64,000 nt of DNA, from the sequence record PZ171032.1. One strand, written 5' to 3'. Below, in pieces: positions 25,831 through 42,775 of the stretch. Both the position numbers and the translations under genes were made by a program. The notes beneath the pieces are model-generated. The model was not told the origin of the DNA. It worked only from the letters and a program-made list of their open reading frames with translations, and searched no databases. Source of the DNA: a phage. The first letter of the stretch is position 1. Every line of letters starts with the position of its first letter.

Positions 25831-27321
25831 TTAAATAGTTTGTTGGAAAGTTATATTACTTTCGTCGAGGTCAAACACCTCGGTCATGTTCGCAACAATA
25901 TCGTTTGTAGTGTAAGCTTCATCAGAAGCTCCTACTGGTTTAACTTGAATTACCAGTCTATTAAATCTGCCTATTGACACAGCAGCAGATGCAGCACCGA
26001 CCAATTGGATATTATACAACGTATCTGCAACATCCAGTCCGTTAACAACCTGCAAAAGAGCCTCTACAATGGCATCTTTTTCGGTTGTGGAAAGCGCAGC
26101 ACCGGAGTAGGTAATTCTTACATCCAGTCGGTAGGTATTTGCCTTGGAATAATAAATTCTTTCAGTTTGACCGTCAGATGTAGTGACATCGTAGAAAATA
26201 TTACCATAAGTCCTGTTCGTACAGGCGATAGTTTGGTAAAGCGCTTGGCAAATGTCCTCCGTTGCACCACCAAACACAACCACTTGGAACTTGTAAGGAG
26301 GTATACCTTTAGCATCAGTTTTATCGGTGTTGTTGGAGAACACTCTCACTTTCTCAACACCTTTCACCTCGCTTACAGCGCTAAGGATTGCAGGACGAGT
26401 GGCCTTAGATGTTAACTGTTTTGTGCTGGAAGCTCTTAAGCGATACTCGGAGTCTTTCTCAACATCCCTGCCCTCATTGAATCTTTCTCGGTTGGTAAGT
26501 TTGATAAATCCACTGGGCGTAGGCGACATTGTTGTTACGGTTTCTGCCTCTCTTGACAGCTCACCAGCCTCGTTGGCGATAACATCCAGGGTGATAGTTC
26601 TTTCCCCTACAATCGGGGATACTCTGAAATCTACTCTACTATTAAGTCCAACTTGATCAAGATTCGAATTGTACCCTATCCACAACGTCCCTGTCAACAT
26701 ATCGATCTGAATCAAATCGTCGTTCAACAGGGTTGTATTATCGACAATGAATTGCTTAATCTCTCCGTAAAAGCTTGGCAAATCAGAAGAGTCCAGAGAC
26801 TTATCTGTTAAAACCAGGCTTTTTGTTTTGATACTTCCATCTGTCTGGTTGGTAATTTGGAAGTTGTATTTCCCAATCCTTAGGTCTGGAGCATTTATTC
26901 TGTGAGCAATAAGATTCCCTGCTACTTGCACATCGTTGCTAAGAACAAAGTTGCCACTGTCCAGCGTATAAGTTTTGGAATCATAAATCATATTGTACGG
27001 CACAGTTGTGTTGATTGTCAACTGGCAGGTACCTGATGATTTAGAACGGCCTCTTCGGTAAATACCCTGTCTTCCAAGAAGCTCATCTAGGTAAATACCT
27101 TCTGCCCCATACAGCGTCTGTGATGCGTATACAGATGCTGCCATAAGAATAAGTTGATACTCTCTCTCGTTGAAGATAGTGGTCAGCTTATCTGCAACGG
27201 AGTTACTCTGTACGTTGAAGTTTTCGCCAAAAGCACGGATCAGGCTTTGCTTAGTTTCAACGATTAGGTCATTTAGGGTTGGTATAACGAAACCAGCCTC
27301 TGTCAATCCATACTTAGCCAC
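25831..27321 (-). CDS. tail/baseplate structural protein (possible baseplate wedge J/gp6-like)
   Basis: 496 aa; position after central fibre gene; assignment by context only. Confidence 0.35.
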   Translation of the reverse strand: MAKYGLTEAGFVIPTLNDLIVETKQSLIRAFGENFNVQSNSVADKLTTIFNEREYQLILMAASVYASQTLYGAEGIYLDELLGRQGIYRRGRSKSSGTCQLTINTTVPYNMIYDSKTYTLDSGNFVLSNDVQVAGNLIAHRINAPDLRIGKYNFQITNQTDGSIKTKSLVLTDKSLDSSDLPSFYGEIKQFIVDNTTLLNDDLIQIDMLTGTLWIGYNSNLDQVGLNSRVDFRVSPIVGERTITLDVIANEAGELSREAETVTTMSPTPSGFIKLTNRERFNEGRDVEKDSEYRLRASSTKQLTSKATRPAILSAVSEVKGVEKVRVFSNNTDKTDAKGIPPYKFQVVVFGGATEDICQALYQTIACTNRTYGNIFYDVTTSDGQTERIYYSKANTYRLDVRITYSGAALSTTEKDAIVEALLQVVNGLDVADTLYNIQLVGAASAAVSIGRFNRLVIQVKPVGASDEAYTTNDIVANMTEVFDLDESNITFQQTI

Positions 27322-27390
27322 GTCACTCCTCCGGTATGAAAATCTCTACAAGGTATTTTACCAAATTTTGTAACAATAGTCAATCTGAGC

Positions 27391-27417
27391 ATAAAAATAA
27401 ACCCCGCCGAAGCGGGG
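27391..27417 (-). terminator. rho-independent terminator (CCCCGC-CGAA-GCGGGG + U-run)
   Basis: Same hairpin sequence as at 968-983; UUUAUUUUUAU follows on minus strand directly downstream of the J-like gene stop. Confidence 0.6.
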
Positions 27418-27426
27418 CTTTAAAGG

Positions 27427-30400
27427 TTAGTCGTGAGACTCGTTCCAAGGTCCCTGGAAGCTTGAGTTAGAACGGCTTACTACAACAGTAGGACAGGATA
27501 TTGCGACCCCTGTTACAGAAGACGTTGACCATGGTGTGTAGATTTCAACAACAATATCTATGGTTTGTTCACCAAGACCTGTTATCCCTACCGCACACAT
27601 GCCGTTGTTGTCGTTTCCGTACTTCTTACCTGCAAGGATTTGATGTCCGGCTATCCAAACGTTGAGCTGGGAGCTGGCAAGAGTACCATTCAGTTTAAAG
27701 AAGAATGTTACGTTCTTACCCTGACCTGAAACGTTATCTACGTATCTCCACCTCCAACGGCAAACCCTTTGCTGGGAGTTATATACTGGAGCACAATCCC
27801 CATAAGTCCTGTGTGCAACAATTGCACCTTCGAACTGGTTAGCGCGGATAACAGAAGCTTCTACACGACCACGGAAGGTACCTCCGGTTGCGTCTATGGT
27901 GCCTCTAAAGCTACCATTATTGGCATAAACATCCCCACGGAAGGTACCACTAGTGGCGTTAACTGCCCCTGTGAAGTTACCAGAACTGGCGTTGATGTTG
28001 CCTTTCACCCACACATCCATAAATTGGGCGTGCCCGTTCTTGTTAATATACCAACCGTATTTATGGTACCCGTTGCCATCGTAGTTGTTTGACGAAATTT
28101 CTTGTGCGATCTTGGCAGAGGAGATCGTGCCATTCTCTATAAAAGCGTCTTTCAAGAATGCTTGGTTGTTCTTGATTGCGAAAGCAAGGGTTGCTGTTCC
28201 ATTGCCTGGGTTGTATACCGCAAAATTGTTTGCACTAACCATGAAGTAGGATTGAACTTGGCCCCCAGACCCTTCCATCCCCAACTGGATACCTGCAACA
28301 TATTTATTCCCTGCGGAGTCTACCTGTATTTTTGTGCCCCACTGAGCATTTACTTTACCCTCTAAGTCGGTTACAGCCTTAGATGTTGTAGCTACTGCAG
28401 CCCTGATCTCGGACACATCCCCAACACCATCAATGATCTCCTGCTTAGCAACGGCAAGTTCTTGACGAATAGCTGACGCTGTGCCGTTAATCAGATCAAC
28501 AGTGGCGTTATTAGTTTCAGAAATATTCGCAGACAAGTCTTTCTTCGTCTGAGTCAGCTTATTGTCCAACCCAGTAATATTATTGGTGTTGGTTGTAATC
28601 TGCCCTTTAGCAGTGGTTAACTGCTCAGTCAAAGCTGCCGTTTTCTGATTCAACAGGTCAGTTGTGGCCTTGTTGGTGGTAGAAATCAACGTATTAAGAT
28701 CAGACTTGGCGGTGTTTATCTTACCATCAAGCGTGGTGTAGTTTTTGGACACTGTGGCGTTGGTCTGGCTAATCTTCTGGTCAAGAGTCTCAGAAGTTCT
28801 GTTCAGCAAGTCCACAGTGGCCTGGTTAGTGCTCAGAATGCTCGCATCCAACTCAGATCTTTGAGTATTCAACTTGCCCTCTAGGCTCTTATCACCAGCC
28901 AGATAGCCTTTTTCAACATCTCCGATCTGCTCAGTCAACTCGCCCTGTGCAGCAACCAGTTTTTCATCCAACGCCTCTGTTTTCTTATTAAGAAGATCAG
29001 TGGTGGATTTGTTGGTTGACTCAATCAAGGATGATAGTTTAGCACTCTCATTCTGCAGGTTGTTGGTCAACTCACCTTTCGTTGCTGTCAGCTTGCTGTC
29101 TAAAGCCTCGGTTTTCCGATTAAGGAGATCTGTAGTCGTTTTATTGGTTGATACAATCAGAGAGTTCAGCTCAGAGCTTTCCTGTGCTAAAGCATCTTCC
29201 AATTCACCCCTTGTTGAAACAATCTTCTCGTCCAAAGCTTCAGTTTTCTGATTTAACAGATCGGTTGTAGCTTTGTTAGTGGTCTGGATTAGAGAAGTCA
29301 ACTTGCCACTTTCTTTAGAAAGATCATTTGCAAACTTATTCTGAGTGGCTACCAGTTTCTGGTCTAGAGTGGTAAGCGTTCCATTAACGTCCTGGAAGTT
29401 GTCGTGGGTTTCTTGGATGAATATTCCAACCCTATCCCCCAACTGAGCATACAGCTTGTCTACTCTAGAGAACTCACCTTCCATGTGGTCAAAAGCCTCG
29501 TCAACTCTACCATCCATGTACCTGTTAAGTTCTGTGACACGATTTTCAACCTCTTCAATAGAGGAATCCAAAGTGCTCATCAACTCTTTATAAGTTTCTG
29601 TCTTTTTGAATTCAGCATCTATCTGAGGCATCAAATCCTCGATAGAGGTGTAGCAGCGTGCAGCGCATTCTACAAACTGAGAGCTACCAAAAGCGTTTGT
29701 GGTTCTAATATACCAATAATAAACCTTATCGTTCTGCAGGCCTTCAGATGTCCAAGTTGAACCAACACCCATACGGGTGGCGTTTGAAGTAACGGTTGCA
29801 TCACTGGTGTCGGGCAACCTTGTCATACCAGATGTCCAAAAGTCATACTGGGTGCTTACACTTGCTAAATCCCTGCTGTGTGGAATCAAGGTGATAGCAA
29901 AGTATCCCTGCTTAACCTCTACAGAAACAGGAGCTTCAGGTGCCTGAATGTTAAACTCGCAGTACGCTTCTGGAGATACACCACCTTTATAAGATGTTGC
30001 AACCACGGTTGCTGTGTATGATCCTTTGGTCAAGCCTTCTACTCGGACAAACTGCTCAACTGTCTGTGCTGTCCAAACAATCTCTCCGTTCTTTCTTACC
30101 TGTACAATATTTTGAGCGTAAGTTCCAACGTTGTCCCAAGCCAAAACACCGTGAGTTACTTCTCCGGCTTGGAGAACGGAATATCTGAAGTTTTGCGGTT
30201 GAGCTACACCAGATGGAGATATCGGAATATCTACATTGCCAGAATCCGGAAGTTGCCCTGTGGCATCATTCCACTCTTTAGCATCTTGACGAAGTTTTAC
30301 CTTGACACCACCCTTTTTGGTAAACTCCCATTCAAGAACCCTCATTTCTTGGCCCACTATACCAATACTTGGAAGGTTCATTGTAACGTAACGACCAGGT

Positions 30401-31572
30401 TTAAATTTAAAACCTCGCATATTGCAGGTGACTTCAATAATCCTGCCAGCTCTAGCGCGTCTTAAGAAGATTGCAGAAACACGCTGAGCTTGATAAGGAC
30501 TGGTAACAAAGCGATAGTCTATATCGATTATCTTTCTTTCTCCATCCTTCTCTATCCACTCTGGGACAAACACTGATGGAAAATCTGTTTCAGAATACCC
30601 TTTGGTCGGACTAGTGAATCTGCCAGTTATTGTGTTGGATCTTTTGTCAAATGAGGCTTCCGGATAGATCTTGACCTCACCACAGACACAATCCTCACTC
30701 AGCGTCATTGTTGCCGGGCCATAGTATGCACCAACCAGCAAACCATACTTACCAGCTACATAGCTGAGATCTGCGCCACAAGCTTTCAGCATTTCTGCCA
30801 TAATGCTTGCCGGAGCCTCGTCCATGTCAAACTCGCCATTAATGGTGTATCGGCGCTCACTGGTTCCGTCTGCGTTTTTTACCGCCTCGTCGCATATGTT
30901 AGCAGCCTCCTTGAAGGACTCCCAGTTGATGGTTTCGTCAGGACATTTAAGGTACGTTCTTAAATAGTCTAGAATCACCAAGGACGCGTTATTGGTATAC
31001 ACCTCTTTACTGATGCGAGGATCATAGCATTTTTTACCAACCTTGACGAGTGTAACGTTTGGCAACCCAAAAGGAAACTTGTTAGGGTCGAACTTGAAGC
31101 TGGCACGTAGCCAACTGATCCCTCTACCTATCATGTCTGGTGACCACGATGGGCAGTGTGTCCCCATGAAAGGATCAGCCGTTTTTCTGTCGTTATGTAA
31201 CTCCCACGATACCAAATCTCCATACGAGGAAATAGGATTACCATCGACAAGTATATCTTCTATACCTTCCAGAGGGTGATTGGCAAGAACAATAGCACAA
31301 TGGAGGGTTTTGTCTCTATCCTGCTCCAAAAACGCAAGCAATCCAGATGTGCGTGTCTTTCCATACACTACAGAGCAAGGTGCAGCAGAAGATCTGAGAA
31401 GCTTTTGTCTATCTTGCTGACTTCTGTAAGATTTGTTGCCCTCAAAAATCTTATCCAGAGTTCTGGTGGTAACAGTGTTCAGGCTGTCAGCCAGAGCTGC
31501 CTTGGATGCGTTCCAGTCATAACTTGAAGATCTTGCAGAAGCAACGATGTTATCAATCATTGCAATTGGCAT
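27427..31572 (-). CDS. lambda J-like host specificity / central tail fibre protein with coiled-coil repeat insertion
   Basis: 1381 aa; segments GYFAITLIPH, YYWYIRTTNAFGSSQFVE and WGTKIQVDSAGNKYVAGIQLGMEG match recalled lambda J motifs ([52 protein letters not shown]); about 330 aa of ~41-aa tandem repeats inserted. Confidence 0.75.
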   Translation of the reverse strand: MPIAMIDNIVASARSSSYDWNASKAALADSLNTVTTRTLDKIFEGNKSYRSQQDRQKLLRSSAAPCSVVYGKTRTSGLLAFLEQDRDKTLHCAIVLANHPLEGIEDILVDGNPISSYGDLVSWELHNDRKTADPFMGTHCPSWSPDMIGRGISWLRASFKFDPNKFPFGLPNVTLVKVGKKCYDPRISKEVYTNNASLVILDYLRTYLKCPDETINWESFKEAANICDEAVKNADGTSERRYTINGEFDMDEAPASIMAEMLKACGADLSYVAGKYGLLVGAYYGPATMTLSEDCVCGEVKIYPEASFDKRSNTITGRFTSPTKGYSETDFPSVFVPEWIEKDGERKIIDIDYRFVTSPYQAQRVSAIFLRRARAGRIIEVTCNMRGFKFKPGRYVTMNLPSIGIVGQEMRVLEWEFTKKGGVKVKLRQDAKEWNDATGQLPDSGNVDIPISPSGVAQPQNFRYSVLQAGEVTHGVLAWDNVGTYAQNIVQVRKNGEIVWTAQTVEQFVRVEGLTKGSYTATVVATSYKGGVSPEAYCEFNIQAPEAPVSVEVKQGYFAITLIPHSRDLASVSTQYDFWTSGMTRLPDTSDATVTSNATRMGVGSTWTSEGLQNDKVYYWYIRTTNAFGSSQFVECAARCYTSIEDLMPQIDAEFKKTETYKELMSTLDSSIEEVENRVTELNRYMDGRVDEAFDHMEGEFSRVDKLYAQLGDRVGIFIQETHDNFQDVNGTLTTLDQKLVATQNKFANDLSKESGKLTSLIQTTNKATTDLLNQKTEALDEKIVSTRGELEDALAQESSELNSLIVSTNKTTTDLLNRKTEALDSKLTATKGELTNNLQNESAKLSSLIESTNKSTTDLLNKKTEALDEKLVAAQGELTEQIGDVEKGYLAGDKSLEGKLNTQRSELDASILSTNQATVDLLNRTSETLDQKISQTNATVSKNYTTLDGKINTAKSDLNTLISTTNKATTDLLNQKTAALTEQLTTAKGQITTNTNNITGLDNKLTQTKKDLSANISETNNATVDLINGTASAIRQELAVAKQEIIDGVGDVSEIRAAVATTSKAVTDLEGKVNAQWGTKIQVDSAGNKYVAGIQLGMEGSGGQVQSYFMVSANNFAVYNPGNGTATLAFAIKNNQAFLKDAFIENGTISSAKIAQEISSNNYDGNGYHKYGWYINKNGHAQFMDVWVKGNINASSGNFTGAVNATSGTFRGDVYANNGSFRGTIDATGGTFRGRVEASVIRANQFEGAIVAHRTYGDCAPVYNSQQRVCRWRWRYVDNVSGQGKNVTFFFKLNGTLASSQLNVWIAGHQILAGKKYGNDNNGMCAVGITGLGEQTIDIVVEIYTPWSTSSVTGVAISCPTVVVSRSNSSFQGPWNESHD
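28450..29480 (-). repeat. in-frame tandem ~123-nt (41-aa) coiled-coil repeats inside J-like gene (7-8 units, approximate bounds)
   Basis: Protein repeats of the form LxSLIxSTNKxTTDLLNxKTEALDxKLxxAxGEL between about aa 700 and 1040. Confidence 0.6.
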
Positions 31573-32009
31573 TAATACCTCCAGACATCAACAACGATAG
31601 AATCTTTCATATCGAACATAAAGACCCCTTTATCACCTTTCGCCCAAATCTGGTTGTTCCAGAACACACCAGCGGTGAGCCCGTTCAGACCCTCGAAGAT
31701 AACAATATCGCCACGCTGAACCTGTTTAGGAGTATCTAGTCGAGTCATAAAGAGATCAAAAATAGTAGGCAGGTGTGTGGTTTTGAAACGGAGCATGCAC
31801 CATCTTTTGCTTTCCAACTCTGTTTTATACGTTCCTTCGAAGTTAGAAAGAAAATCTGTTCCGTATTGGGCATCAACACACTTAGCTGCAAAGGTGCAGC
31901 AATCGTGGAATCCCCATTCAAAAGGTATGGTGGCCTCTTCGTCAAACACTTTCCACAATCTTTCTTGCCAATCCACTAAACGAGGGTGTGTGCTCATTAA
32001 ACCTCCCAA
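31572..32009 (-). CDS. tail tip assembly protein, possible NlpC/P60-like (lambda K C-terminal-like)
   Basis: 145 aa; GFHDCCTF candidate catalytic Cys motif; immediately upstream of and coupled to J-like gene. Confidence 0.4.
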   Translation of the reverse strand: MGGLMSTHPRLVDWQERLWKVFDEEATIPFEWGFHDCCTFAAKCVDAQYGTDFLSNFEGTYKTELESKRWCMLRFKTTHLPTIFDLFMTRLDTPKQVQRGDIVIFEGLNGLTAGVFWNNQIWAKGDKGVFMFDMKDSIVVDVWRY

Positions 32010-32563
32010 ATGATCGGGCGGCTCGCCACCTGATCCACATATTTAAAAAATCTGTCATTATCGTTTCTTGAGCTGTGGCTTTCCTCCGTGTACCGATAAG
32101 GAAAACCTCTTAACCAGCTGTTGAAGATGGAAGAGATGGATATGGACAAAGCACTATTCTCACCTGTCTGAATAGCCATATCTGTTATAAGTCCGTCAAA
32201 CAAGCCATTAGTTGTAACAGGTAGACCATTCTCCATAGCGGTAATGTACAACGTGGCACGACAACCAGAATACTCCGTCTTCAGCAGATCACCCACATAC
32301 TTAGGATCAAACCCGTTTAATGTTGCTACCACAGATCCGAAGTTGGTGGCATCTTTCTCAGACACAGCAGTTAATGTTGCTGATCCCCCTATCCCTATAA
32401 AATGTTGCCCCTCAATTACTACAACACCAGTGCCTGAGCACACTCTGACAGTTCCTGTCGGTAGCTCCAGCTTTGCAGCAATTAAGATCTCAACACCATC
32501 AAGCTCCAGCTTTTCAAGAAATAAATTATCTAATGGCGCTCTGATCATCTTAGAAATCCTCAA
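31997..32563 (-). CDS. minor tail protein (tail tip complex, putative)
   Basis: 188 aa; overlaps neighbours by a few codons, consistent with coupled tail-tip operon. Confidence 0.4.
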   Translation of the reverse strand: MRISKMIRAPLDNLFLEKLELDGVEILIAAKLELPTGTVRVCSGTGVVVIEGQHFIGIGGSATLTAVSEKDATNFGSVVATLNGFDPKYVGDLLKTEYSGCRATLYITAMENGLPVTTNGLFDGLITDMAIQTGENSALSISISSIFNSWLRGFPYRYTEESHSSRNDNDRFFKYVDQVASRPIIWEV

Positions 32564-33140
32564 AGAAGTTGATAACTATATTATCACCTTTTTGCATAGC
32601 ATCGACTTTTTGCTTAATTTTATAAATATCTCTGATATGAAACCTACCCTTCGGGGATTGAGTTATTATCTTCATAGTGTCCCCTGCGGCAATAGGTTTT
32701 CTAAGTCTTGGAGATATGCTTATAACAGCAGACCCAACACCATCGCTACGCACTGGAGCTGTTACCACTTTCAATTCATCATTGACAGATATTTTATCCC
32801 CAGCTCTGGCTATGTCTCTGTTTGGCTCCCACCCAACCGTCTTCAAAAAATCGTCGTTACCAGTAGGCCCAAGGGCGATTGGCTCATTAGCTGTTACCGA
32901 GTGACCGTAAGTTTTAATAAGAAAGATGTTCCCATCTTTATACACCTGATCAACAAAGCTCTTAAGCTCTAGCAACTGTGACTCGCTGATATTGGAAACC
33001 GTCAAAGTGCCTTTCCAGTTGGGTGTGGCATAGGTTACTTTTTGCGTTTTACCTGTAAACGGACTTTTAAACGTAACAATATCTGCCAGCAGCTCCAATC
33101 TAATATCTGGAAGGTATCTAGGCCTTTCCCATAAAAACAT
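32550..33140 (-). CDS. minor tail protein (lambda L-like position, putative)
   Basis: 196 aa; third gene upstream of J-like gene. Confidence 0.4.
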   Translation of the reverse strand: MFLWERPRYLPDIRLELLADIVTFKSPFTGKTQKVTYATPNWKGTLTVSNISESQLLELKSFVDQVYKDGNIFLIKTYGHSVTANEPIALGPTGNDDFLKTVGWEPNRDIARAGDKISVNDELKVVTAPVRSDGVGSAVISISPRLRKPIAAGDTMKIITQSPKGRFHIRDIYKIKQKVDAMQKGDNIVINFFEDF

Positions 33141-33212
33141 TGTGCCTCCAGGTTAAACAATCATGATAATTATTTTACCAGATTTTGAGTTAATACGCAA
33201 TACAAACAAAAA

Positions 33213-33232
33213 GCCCCCGCCGAAGCGAGGGC
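33213..33232 (-). terminator. terminator hairpin (GCCCCCGC-CGAA-GCGAGGGC, one mismatch) + U-run
   Basis: Third copy of the CGAA-loop GC hairpin, directly downstream of 1270-aa fibre gene stop. Confidence 0.5.
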
Positions 33233-41093: not shown

Positions 41094-41771
41094 TTAGTGC
41101 GGTCCACTTGTCTCGCCATCAGGGCAAGAGTGGGTATGACCTTTATATTCTGCATAGAATGAATCCAAATCCACACCTGCAGCAGTTATAATTCTACCAG
41201 ATGGGTCTATTGTAGCACCATTCATTCTGATATTCCCATCCACAGCAGCTCGCAAATTGGCAGCCCCGTTAGTGAAAGAAAACTCCCCGCTGCTGTCGCA
41301 CCGTAATGTCCCACCAGGTGTTTGAAGCTCAAAATCGCCAGAAGGTGTCAGTTTAAAATAAACTCTATCATTCCATAACTCTACGTTATCAGGATCGATC
41401 TGTAAGGCGTTTGAGTCTGAATGAACAGAGGTGATTGCCCACCCTGGAAACAGGCCGTGAGTTTGTTGATCGTCATTATTGTTTTCATTCCTCTCTGAAA
41501 ACTGCAATCCTACAACATCTCCAGCCTTAATAGGAAGTGTTAACCTTGCCTTTCCGCTGTTTGCAGACATCACCTGAATTGGAACGTCATAGATAAGAGG
41601 GTATCTCTCCACATCTCCGTCATCAAACGTGGTTTCAGCTATTGGCTGCACGGCTGCAGAAGGTATACTGTAGTCAACACTGACAACTCTGGCCCTGATA
41701 CTTGTGTGGTAATCCCTCATTATTTTTTCTATGAAGGATCTTACAGCAGCATCTTTCCTATTTATTGCCAT
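41094..41771 (-). CDS. baseplate central spike, gpV/Mu gp45-like (OB-fold with C-terminal HxH tip motif)
   Basis: 225 aa; C-terminus YKGHTHSCPDGETSGPH resembles the metal-binding apex of phage and T6SS spikes. Confidence 0.5.
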   Translation of the reverse strand: MAINRKDAAVRSFIEKIMRDYHTSIRARVVSVDYSIPSAAVQPIAETTFDDGDVERYPLIYDVPIQVMSANSGKARLTLPIKAGDVVGLQFSERNENNNDDQQTHGLFPGWAITSVHSDSNALQIDPDNVELWNDRVYFKLTPSGDFELQTPGGTLRCDSSGEFSFTNGAANLRAAVDGNIRMNGATIDPSGRIITAAGVDLDSFYAEYKGHTHSCPDGETSGPH

Positions 41772-42775
41772 TATACCTCCTCAGTTTTGTCAACAACTCC
41801 ACCCACTGTTTCCCCAAGGCCAAGCTCTGTAGTGTAATCACCTCCTTCTATGGTGCCCTTATGATGCACCGTGATCACCTTATAGAATCCTGTATATTGC
41901 TTGCTTTTAAGATAAATAGTGGACTCTGGGAGGATAGCTCCGTTAAGGCATGTGGTTACAGTAAGGCCAACATCCTCTCTCGGGTTTTTCTTTTTCTTTT
42001 TAGATGTCGAACCACCTTTGGCAGCAGCTTTAGCTTTTCGTTTTTTAGCAGGTTCTGGGTTTTTAGGGGTAGGCGATCCGTGCATCCCAGACTCTGCACT
42101 TATTTCAAACACAGAGTCTTTGAACCTTTTTCCAACCTTGGTCCAATACAAAGCTCCATCCTGAACGCTAAACGTGGAGTTGGTCAGCCTTGCAAACCTG
42201 CGTAGGTTCTCTGCAGTGTTTCCAGAGAAAGCCATAGAGTATTGCAAAGTCTGGTTTCCAAAACCAACAACCCTACCTTTTGGCAAGTTCATATCCTTCA
42301 GCAGGTCATTAAGCACAGAATTCAGAGGTGTTCCTTTCTGATAAGATCTTGTGCTTTGGCACTTAATGATGTTCTCAGTACCATCCCCAAAGATGAACTT
42401 AGTTTTTCTGGTCGGACCTTCCCACCTGTCTTCAACAAACTCTACAGTTCCGGAGAATATCAACTGGTTCTCATCATCATAGCCAGCCTCAAACATGACT
42501 GCAAGGGCATCAGCCTGATGCATATCCAGATAGTTAACTGTATCGTCAGACAGGTTGTAAACTGTCACATAACCTTTGTTTGGCTCTTTGGTATTGTCCT
42601 TTTGTATGTCAAACTCTATATTGGCAGCACCAGTGTCTGAGCTAACTTCATAAACTCCGGAATCACTATCCCCTTTCTTTTCAACAGATTTTGGGATATT
42701 GGTTTTTGATTTACCGCCATGTTCTACCGGACGACCAAACAATAATCGCCATGTTCTACGTCTGTACTCTGCCAT
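41771..42775 (-). CDS. baseplate hub-like protein with Lys-rich low-complexity insert
   Basis: 334 aa; located between TMP-proximal genes and spike; KKRKAKAAAKGGSTSKKKKKNPRE insert encoded by A/T homopolymer tracts. Confidence 0.4.
   Translation of the reverse strand: MAEYRRRTWRLLFGRPVEHGGKSKTNIPKSVEKKGDSDSGVYEVSSDTGAANIEFDIQKDNTKEPNKGYVTVYNLSDDTVNYLDMHQADALAVMFEAGYDDENQLIFSGTVEFVEDRWEGPTRKTKFIFGDGTENIIKCQSTRSYQKGTPLNSVLNDLLKDMNLPKGRVVGFGNQTLQYSMAFSGNTAENLRRFARLTNSTFSVQDGALYWTKVGKRFKDSVFEISAESGMHGSPTPKNPEPAKKRKAKAAAKGGSTSKKKKKNPREDVGLTVTTCLNGAILPESTIYLKSKQYTGFYKVITVHHKGTIEGGDYTTELGLGETVGGVVDKTEEV

Follow-up and report, generated by a model that had tools for sequence, protein, structure and literature searches.

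How a protein resembling the central fiber protein J of phage lambda comes to carry several hundred repetitive residues between two conserved blocks, and whether these residues set it apart from its family, is the question raised by one gene of phage record PZ171032.1. The window, that is the whole stretch of 64,000 nucleotides (nt) that was analyzed, encodes this J-like protein on the minus strand at positions 27427 to 31572. A first-pass annotation, made from the letters and the open reading frames (ORFs) alone, had proposed an insertion of 7-8 tandem repeats forming an elongated coiled-coil shaft within a tail-tip protein. According to our analysis, the segment is an expanded form of a shaft that is common in the J family, composed in this lineage of 44-residue units and differing among related phages by whole units. 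The finding is real but ordinary: this kind of protein has already been deposited and described, and the new detail concerning the shaft is modest.

On sequence grounds, the ORF belongs with lambda J and T5 pb3 in a family of trimeric hub and fiber proteins, and has the domain order hub-like region, two Ig/FNIII domains, shaft, beta-prism and distal domain. Its features, in amino acids (aa) of the protein and positions of the window, are as follows.

27427..31572, minus strand: complete coding sequence of the J-like fiber protein, 1381 aa (ORF list); orthologue of gp37 of phage rV5
30133..31572, minus strand: N-terminal hub-like region, aa 1-480 (50% identical to the N-terminus of the phage 9g J protein; pb3 profile match)
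29938..30096, minus strand: first Ig/FNIII-like domain (Ig_J, partial), aa 493-545 (PF24421, 3e-5)
29617..29934, minus strand: second Ig/FNIII domain (Ig_J_second), aa 547-652 (PF24489, 1.3e-30)
28348..29628, minus strand: alpha-helical shaft, aa 649-1075, 427 aa (free of proline, periodic, helices in an AlphaFold2 (AF2) model)
28963..29358, minus strand: three exact tandem 44-aa units of the shaft, aa 739-782, 783-826 and 827-870 (iterated repeat hidden Markov model (HMM), independent E-values 1e-25 to 1e-27)
28465..28908, minus strand: three diverged units with spacers, aa ~890-932, 941-983 and 993-1036 (repeat HMM, independent E-values 1.8e-20, 4.1e-19 and 6.4e-8)
27976..28398, minus strand: Phage_Tail_Tip domain (beta-prism), aa 1059-1199 (PF09327; PDB matches)
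27430..27975, minus strand: beta-helix repeats and distal C-terminal domain, aa 1200-1381 (direct repeat D2; without Ig_GpJ_C)

Membership of the J family is well supported by domain searches. Pfam identified Ig_J_second with E = 1.3e-30 (106 bits vs a cut-off of 27) and Phage_Tail_Tip with E = 3.2e-39 (134 bits vs a cut-off of 22), and PHROGs assigned the protein to phrog_31, 'central tail fiber J' (1e-159), in an alignment that begins at aa 143. The partial Ig_J match remains below the gathering score and pairs with lambda J residues 666-714. BLASTP against lambda J aligned aa 497-684 with J 666-850 and aa 1064-1228 with J 849-990, each at 1e-17. The motifs GYFAITLIPH (aa 556-565), YYWYIRTTNAFGSSQFVE (aa 618-635) and WGTKIQVDSAGNKYVAGIQLG (aa 1078-1098) all lie in these lambda-J-alignable blocks, and the earlier observation that lambda J motifs flank the extra segment on both sides is confirmed. 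Sequence matches in the PDB comprised lambda J (8iyk), C-terminal fragments of J (8xcj and 9wca), the F2 pyocin fiber (25vf) and other J-like fibers.

Pfam returned no match for the N-terminal ~480 aa, and neither PF13550 (Phage-tail_3) nor FNIII-A_GpJ was detected by Pfam in the protein at E<=1; a three-sequence profile of aa 1-480 matched residues 519-745 of the T5 baseplate hub protein pb3 (E = 1.5e-7). The receptor-binding domain Ig_GpJ_C (PF12421), found in lambda J at 4.5e-74, is absent from the J-like protein according to Pfam. Its place is taken by a distal domain homologous to that of phage 9g, which beyond ~aa 1218 had no Pfam and no PDB sequence match. Ig_GpJ_C is a domain of the lambda lineage and not of the family as a whole.

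Between the conserved blocks, ~380 aa have no counterpart in lambda J, the Pfam linker from Ig_J_second to Phage_Tail_Tip measuring 406 aa here vs 26 aa in lambda; the insertion had been estimated at ~330 aa, which is too short. Lambda J is a trimer whose FNIII-2 and beta-prism are connected by a three-helix bundle, the alpha-helical shaft (AHS, residues 809-861; PMC11101478). The ends of the window shaft align to lambda J 806-850 and 849-862 (BLASTP), and because both alignment edges fall inside the lambda AHS, the extra segment is an expansion of the family shaft itself.

This shaft has the characteristics of one long amphipathic helix. Residues 650-1075 (426 aa) contain no proline, and hydrophobicity shows a single dominant period of 3.64 residues, the power of which (257) lies ~19 standard deviations (SD) above that of shuffled sequences (mean 54.5, SD 10.4, maximum 92). 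Control regions of the same protein showed no comparable periodicity. Arranged in lines of 11 residues, the shaft shows L, I or F at nearly every position of columns 4 and 11 and polar residues in column 8; together with the period of 3.64, this identifies the pattern as a hendecad (11/3 = 3.67) and not a heptad. In an AF2 model of aa 640-1381, run as a single-sequence monomer, aa 690-1078 are almost entirely helical (690-891, 897-1049 and 1053-1078) with predicted local distance difference test (pLDDT) scores of 60-73; mean pLDDT of the run was 48.5, with values <50 for the beta-prism and distal domains. Pfam matches of the shaft were weak, namely Apolipoprotein, an amphipathic-helix family (3e-7, below threshold), Spectrin_7 and DUF7217. 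Of the coiled-coil shaft predicted by the first-pass annotation, the helical and amphipathic character stands, and a classical heptad pattern does not.

The repeat itself is far beyond chance in the protein and weak in the DNA. The best BLOSUM self-similarity offset of the shaft is 44 aa, corresponding to 132 nt or four hendecads (0.56 vs -0.01 for the best shuffle). Six units are recognizable in total and only three are strictly tandem, the diverged ones having start-to-start spacings of ~62, 51 and 54 aa, so that the 7-8 tandem repeats of ~41 aa described earlier have to be revised. In the DNA, the units form a repeat family (D1) with 132-nt spacing and 60-80% similarity; they are ~60% identical, their longest exact shared word is 8 nt, and Tandem Repeats Finder, applied to 27000-32000, reported no array in the repeat zone. 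The repeats of the window genome are a poor recombination substrate at present because the DNA units are too diverged.

Relatives of the phage carry shafts of other lengths. Megablast and tblastn assigned the window to Vequintavirus, a genus of rV5-like Escherichia coli phages with contractile tails, in agreement with protein identities of 95% to rV5 gp37, 98% to P0001 and 99.1% to BP9. In DNA, megablast gave 97% identity between the gene and phages VB-EcoM-WM, BP9 and ECML-10. All matches listed in a full-length homologue search were near-identical Vequintavirus proteins, and in the protein collection the 1381-aa protein is represented by a cluster of 129 members. Four shaft alleles were distinguished:

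window-type allele: protein of 1381 aa, 6 units, shaft of 427 aa
rV5-type allele: protein of 1279 aa, 4 units, shaft of 325 aa
JES2013-type allele: protein of 1199 aa, 3 units, shaft of 245 aa
allele of O157 typing phage 14 (TP14): protein of 1174 aa, 2 units, shaft of 220 aa

Among 114 phage records matching the shaft, ~13 fell into the window-type identity band, 58 into the rV5-type band and 43 into the JES2013-type band; these bands stand for the 1381-aa, rV5-type and JES2013-type shafts, respectively. Outside the shaft, the alleles are 97-100% identical in protein, the distal C-terminal domain included, and only the shaft varies. Compared with the window, rV5 shows one gap of 14 aa and one exactly in-register gap of 88 aa (2 x 44). 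TP14 (L006:684-4208) is the same as rV5 (L002:14001-17840) apart from a deletion of precisely 315 nt between two occurrences of the 13-mer AAGCCACTGTGGA, which sit in repeat units 2 and 4. An assembly artefact was considered as a source of the repeats and ruled out, because the identical 1381-aa allele recurs in 13 independent phage records and in the 129-member cluster.

With TP14 as the stand-in for the rV5-type allele, synonymous divergence (dS) exceeds 2 in the shaft, and is thus saturated, vs 0.07-0.36 in the flanks, at ratios of nonsynonymous to synonymous divergence (dN/dS) of 0.05-0.14. The shaft alleles thus are old cassettes that have been under purifying selection in genes whose other parts are closely related. 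Recent slippage was likewise ruled out as the origin of the difference between the window and rV5, because the single junction unit of rV5 is only ~78% identical in DNA to unit 3 of the window and shaft dS is saturated. The expectation that the repeats would promote length variation was right for the genus, where copy number in related isolates differs by in-register units, and holds poorly for the diverged repeats of the window as a present-day recombination substrate. Allelic variation had been noticed before: the BASEL paper reports strong variation in a gene that, judged by its alignment position, is apparently the J-like gene (PMC8594841, S5C legend).

In order to place the shaft within the wider family, 1.84 billion cluster representatives were searched with the tip domain (aa 1055-1240), yielding 1203 matches in proteins of up to ~4800 aa. 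In those proteins in which the two flanking domains were both identifiable, linker length ranged from 21 aa (lambda) over 84 aa (9g) and 299-401 aa (Vequintavirus) to 970-2458 aa. The proline-free amphipathic run directly upstream of the tip domain often extends over hundreds of residues (331, 349, 390, 431, 749 and 1060 aa) with a period of 3.5-3.66. Many other J-family shafts are tandemly repetitive with units of 32, 33 or 29 aa, and these differing units in other lineages indicate that shaft elongation by unit duplication apparently arose repeatedly in the J family. In P0240, P0160, P0137, P0195 and P0239, the tandem units can be written as sums of heptads and hendecads (32/9 = 3.56, 33/9 = 3.67, 29/8 = 3.63), matching the measured periods.

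Helical and often repetitive shafts of ~50 to >1000 aa are widespread in J-family proteins at this position, lambda marking the lower end of the range. The repeats, described earlier as an insertion relative to lambda J, are largely a normal part of the family, since long repetitive shafts are common at this position. Specific to the Vequintavirus shaft are the 44-aa hendecad unit and the period of 3.64, most other lineages having ~3.54.

We consider it quite probable that the shaft is a static, trimeric hendecad coiled-coil spacer that sets the reach of the fiber, its length being altered by loss or gain of units and by exchange of cassettes. It would have been built through duplication of a 44-residue unit of four hendecads and would form a parallel, three-stranded and nearly straight coiled coil, which at ~0.15 nm per residue would give a rod of ~60 nm in the window allele. 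Such a spacer would determine how far the conserved end, consisting of beta-prism, beta-helix and C-terminal domain, is held from the attachment end. Its length may change through in-register loss or gain of repeat units as well as through exchange of whole cassettes between phages. An AF2-multimer atlas describes J-type fibers whose coiled coils vary in length, and also a Vequintavirinae fiber with large coiled-coil domains (PMC12143355). gp37 of rV5 was found in the virion by mass spectrometry, and thin fibers of ~70 nm are occasionally visible on this phage (PMC3606486); these would be compatible with a shaft of ~48 nm plus distal domains, a link that we infer.

Several points weigh against the static spacer. 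The hendecad core is largely polar at column 8 (N, T, S or Q), making the stability of a coiled coil uncertain. The AF2 model is a single-sequence monomer with a mean pLDDT of 48.5, and we infer the trimer, the rod geometry, the spacer function and the position on the virion; any bearing of shaft length on adsorption or on host range would be hypothetical. Because TP14 is known from a partial assembly of short reads, its 315-nt deletion could be an assembly error. Finally, in cryogenic electron microscopy of two phages of the Vequintavirinae, no more than three proximal fibers of the baseplate were resolved, which makes any placement of the J-like protein tentative (PMC12143355).

The genomic surroundings bear on where the protein might sit. 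The J-like gene is the last of a four-gene module whose order (Dit-like, tail protein, DUF6950, J-like) reproduces that of gp65-gp68 in the siphovirus 9g. The neighboring features are:

31572..32009, minus strand: DUF6950 protein (rV5 gp38), upstream gene of the module (PF22262, 2.7e-33; position as 9g gp67)
31997..32563, minus strand: 'tail protein' (rV5 gp39; phrog_2048, 8.9e-68; position as 9g gp66)
32550..33140, minus strand: distal tail protein-like (Dit-like) protein (rV5 gp40; phrog_1302, 2.2e-50; position as 9g gp65)
27399..27420, minus strand: intrinsic-terminator-like hairpin directly after the J-like stop codon (hairpin scan and sequence)
33213..33232, minus strand: terminator-like hairpin upstream of the four-gene module (hairpin scan)
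41771-42775, minus strand: baseplate hub of the canonical myovirus type
41094-41771, minus strand: central spike (phiTE baseplate chain 9cuy_Y, 5e-62; phi92 gp138 spike, 2.5e-18)

The Dit-like and gp39-like proteins had no Pfam match, and PDB sequence searches with them gave only noise; the spike gene at 41094-41771 had no PHROG match. The start codon of the J-like gene overlaps the stop codon of the gene upstream (TAATG) and is preceded by GGAGG at a distance of 7 nt. The module is flanked by a large fiber gene and by baseplate wedge genes, and ~11 kb of baseplate and fiber genes lie between it and the tape-measure gene. The context found in lambda, where tape measure, Dit gpM, gpL, gpK/gpI and J follow each other in the operon of a non-contractile tail, was not encountered in the window. 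At the equivalent site of phage phi92 there is only a small membrane-protein gene and no module, and this phage needs no J-like protein for a complete baseplate (PMC13450770).

Two similar terminator-like hairpins bracket the siphovirus-type module (27399-33232, minus strand). A sigma-70-like promoter (27355-27383, minus strand; TTGACT, a 17-nt spacer, TAAAAT and a TG extension) sits between the terminator of the J-like gene and a baseplate wedge gene that starts with GTG at 27321. At their N-termini, the J-like proteins of 9g and of the Providencia phage PSTCR4 begin with a hydrophobic stretch rich in Ala, Gly and Ile, MPPAIIGAVVA.GA...AALVIG.AA (L004:3848-3990; L005:1363-1500). Residues 1-30 of the Vequintavirus protein (window 31480-31572) are shorter and polar and lack this hydrophobic N-terminus, which may mean that a function in association with the membrane or the tube has been lost.

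Two other conformations of the shaft have to be weighed against the static spacer. As a loaded spring, it would be a trimeric coiled coil that refolds into a beta-prism once the receptor is bound, as in the F7 pyocin and at residues 841-861 of lambda J, where such a switch was seen on a small scale (PMC11101478). In favor of a spring, the shaft immediately precedes the beta-prism 'seed' domain, as its homologous counterparts do. For the 163-residue F7 pyocin shaft the fold switch is reported, and for 21 of 24 siphophage central fibers it is predicted (PMC12874032); the published strand motif SxSxxMxxLxS spans 11 residues, the same period as in the window. Over the whole shaft, however, this motif is not enriched (7 perfect matches vs 5.3 +/- 2.2 in shuffles, with loose residue classes), and for this reason we reject the spring as the primary explanation and regard it as unlikely. 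In addition, whatever register is chosen for the 44-aa repeat, the S positions do not receive small residues, the columns holding mostly T, N, K, E, D and Q, the energy for penetration is already supplied by the contractile tail, and the phage has a hub and spike of its own. The last ~55 shaft residues (aa 1023-1075) are kept in all alleles and hold four perfect motif matches in alternating orientation; a local, lambda-like switch at the junction is therefore possible. It seems less plausible still that the segment is helical without being a parallel coiled coil, that is, folded back into hairpins or bundles as in apolipoprotein or spectrin, or present as a single stable helix, and so a compact or flexible linker instead of a 60-nm rod. 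The weak Pfam matches (Apolipoprotein at 3e-7, far below threshold, Spectrin_7 and DUF7217), the breaks in the AF2 helix at aa 892-896 and 1050-1052 and the partly polar hendecad core would fit such a fold. Solved members of the family, however, are parallel trimers at the shaft segment (PMC11101478, PMC12874032), and AF2-multimer models of a Vequintavirinae homologue show large coiled coils (PMC12143355). The composition is not rich in E, K and R, unlike that of single alpha-helix domains, and hydrophobic positions 4 and 11 are maintained over 400 residues, which together make this alternative very improbable.

It could also be argued that the protein is a true central tail-tip protein, which closes the end of the tube together with the Dit-like and gp39-like proteins and carries the central fiber. 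The four-gene order identical to that of 9g, where the module follows the tape-measure gene, would support this, as would the pb3-like hub region and the name 'central tail fiber J' in several database records. We nevertheless consider it improbable: the window has genes for a hub (41771-42775) and a spike (41094-41771) of the canonical myovirus type, the ~11 kb of baseplate and fiber genes separate the module from the tape-measure gene, terminator-like hairpins bracket it, phi92 builds a complete baseplate with no module at the equivalent site (PMC13450770), and the N-terminus lacks the hydrophobic stretch with which the 9g and PSTCR4 homologues begin. Because the phage encodes its own hub and spike, the designation 'central fiber' is doubtful, and the J-like protein probably does not take the central position; a 'central fiber' or 'tail-tip protein', as the first-pass annotation named it, is not established in a myovirus with this equipment. 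BASEL annotates the protein as a lateral tail fiber (PMC8594841).

A full siphovirus tip module in a myovirus is the puzzle that this gene context raises. We can imagine, as a rather speculative scenario, that the module (Dit-like, gp39-like, DUF6950 and J-like) was captured from a Nonagvirus-like siphovirus and now forms an extra peripheral fiber, the reach of which is tuned by cassette swapping or resizing, and that the junction at aa ~1023-1078 might switch from alpha to beta and signal receptor binding to the baseplate.

Some observations concern the distal end and the database records of the gene. The beta-helix repeats SGNFTGAVNATSGTFRGDVYANNGSFRGTIDATGGTFRG lie at 27869-27990 of the window (minus strand; aa ~1195-1235) and appear in the DNA as repeat D2 with 66-nt spacing. 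The metagenomic proteins P0123-P0126 and P0163 match this stretch 14-19 times and represent a hugely expanded second repeat type. Eighteen records labelled 'Campylobacter phage' (MG065644-MG065690, host C. jejuni) carry the J-like gene at 92-97% DNA identity; their genome size is rV5-like, ~128-143 kb, apart from two shorter ones. The C. jejuni label is probably wrong or reflects co-isolation. Several records (H16, H21 and H39), UniRef and the clusters P0017 and P0035 carry the name 'outer membrane protein alpha (omp-alpha) precursor', which is probably an annotation artefact arising from coiled-coil similarity.

With the static coiled-coil spacer as the preferred reading, the contribution of this analysis can be delimited. 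The gene and the window allele are already in public databases, annotated as J-like, and published reports cover both a J/pb3-like architecture containing a long coiled coil and allelic variation in the J-like gene of Vequintavirinae. New are the shaft of 44-residue hendecad units, the differences between alleles in the number of whole units (6, 4, 3 or 2), due to in-register events as well as to old cassettes, and the confinement of variation to the shaft, sparing the distal, presumed receptor-binding end. These details are of relevance for the engineering of fiber length and for the question of which gene makes which fiber on rV5-type virions.

Among known systems, the RBPseg atlas (Sci Adv 2025, PMC12143355) provides a matching description of the architecture. 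Its 'tail needle fibre' classes TC3, TC4 and TC9 and the TC5 pair are J/pb3-like with a coiled coil 'of varying lengths', as in the window; as far as the atlas was read, no description was found of a 44-aa hendecad unit, of unit counts per allele or of in-register indels. RBP_55 and RBP_22 would be candidates for the gp37 orthologue. The central fiber of the F7/F2 pyocins (PDB 25vf; PMC12874032) is a J-family protein in which a long coiled coil immediately precedes the beta-prism, and matches aa 968-1180 of the window protein (E = 3e-17). Its F7 shaft differs in being 163 residues long, Ala-rich, fold-switching and built on SxSxxMxxLxS, a motif that the repeat region of the window does not fit. 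The J-like protein of the Providencia siphovirus PSTCR4 (QPB12057, 1347 aa) shares the hub, with 40% identity in the N-terminus, and has a longer shaft of ~550 aa that is likewise proline-poor, helical and repetitive, but with different repeat types, for example short DSQGKLI-like ones.

The closest relative outside Vequintavirus is gp68 of the Nonagvirus 9g, 50% identical over the hub, Ig, tip and distal domains. It differs in its shaft of ~110 aa without a recognizable 44-aa unit, in its hydrophobic N-terminus and in belonging to a siphovirus whose module follows the tape-measure gene. Lambda J (PDB 8IYK, 8XCG) shares two FNIII/Ig domains, shaft, beta-prism and beta-helix repeats at 30-31% identity in the two conserved blocks, but its shaft (AHS 809-861) comprises ~52 aa vs ~427 aa in the window; unlike lambda J, the window protein has no recognizable Phage-tail_3 or FNIII-A and no Ig_GpJ_C, and belongs to a contractile-tailed phage. 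Finally, rV5 gp37 (YP_002003539, 'central tail fiber J') is the same gene at the same genomic position and 99-100% identical outside the shaft; what distinguishes it is the shaft, with 4 units in a protein of 1279 aa vs 6 units in 1381 aa in the window, and with shaft DNA diverged to synonymous saturation.

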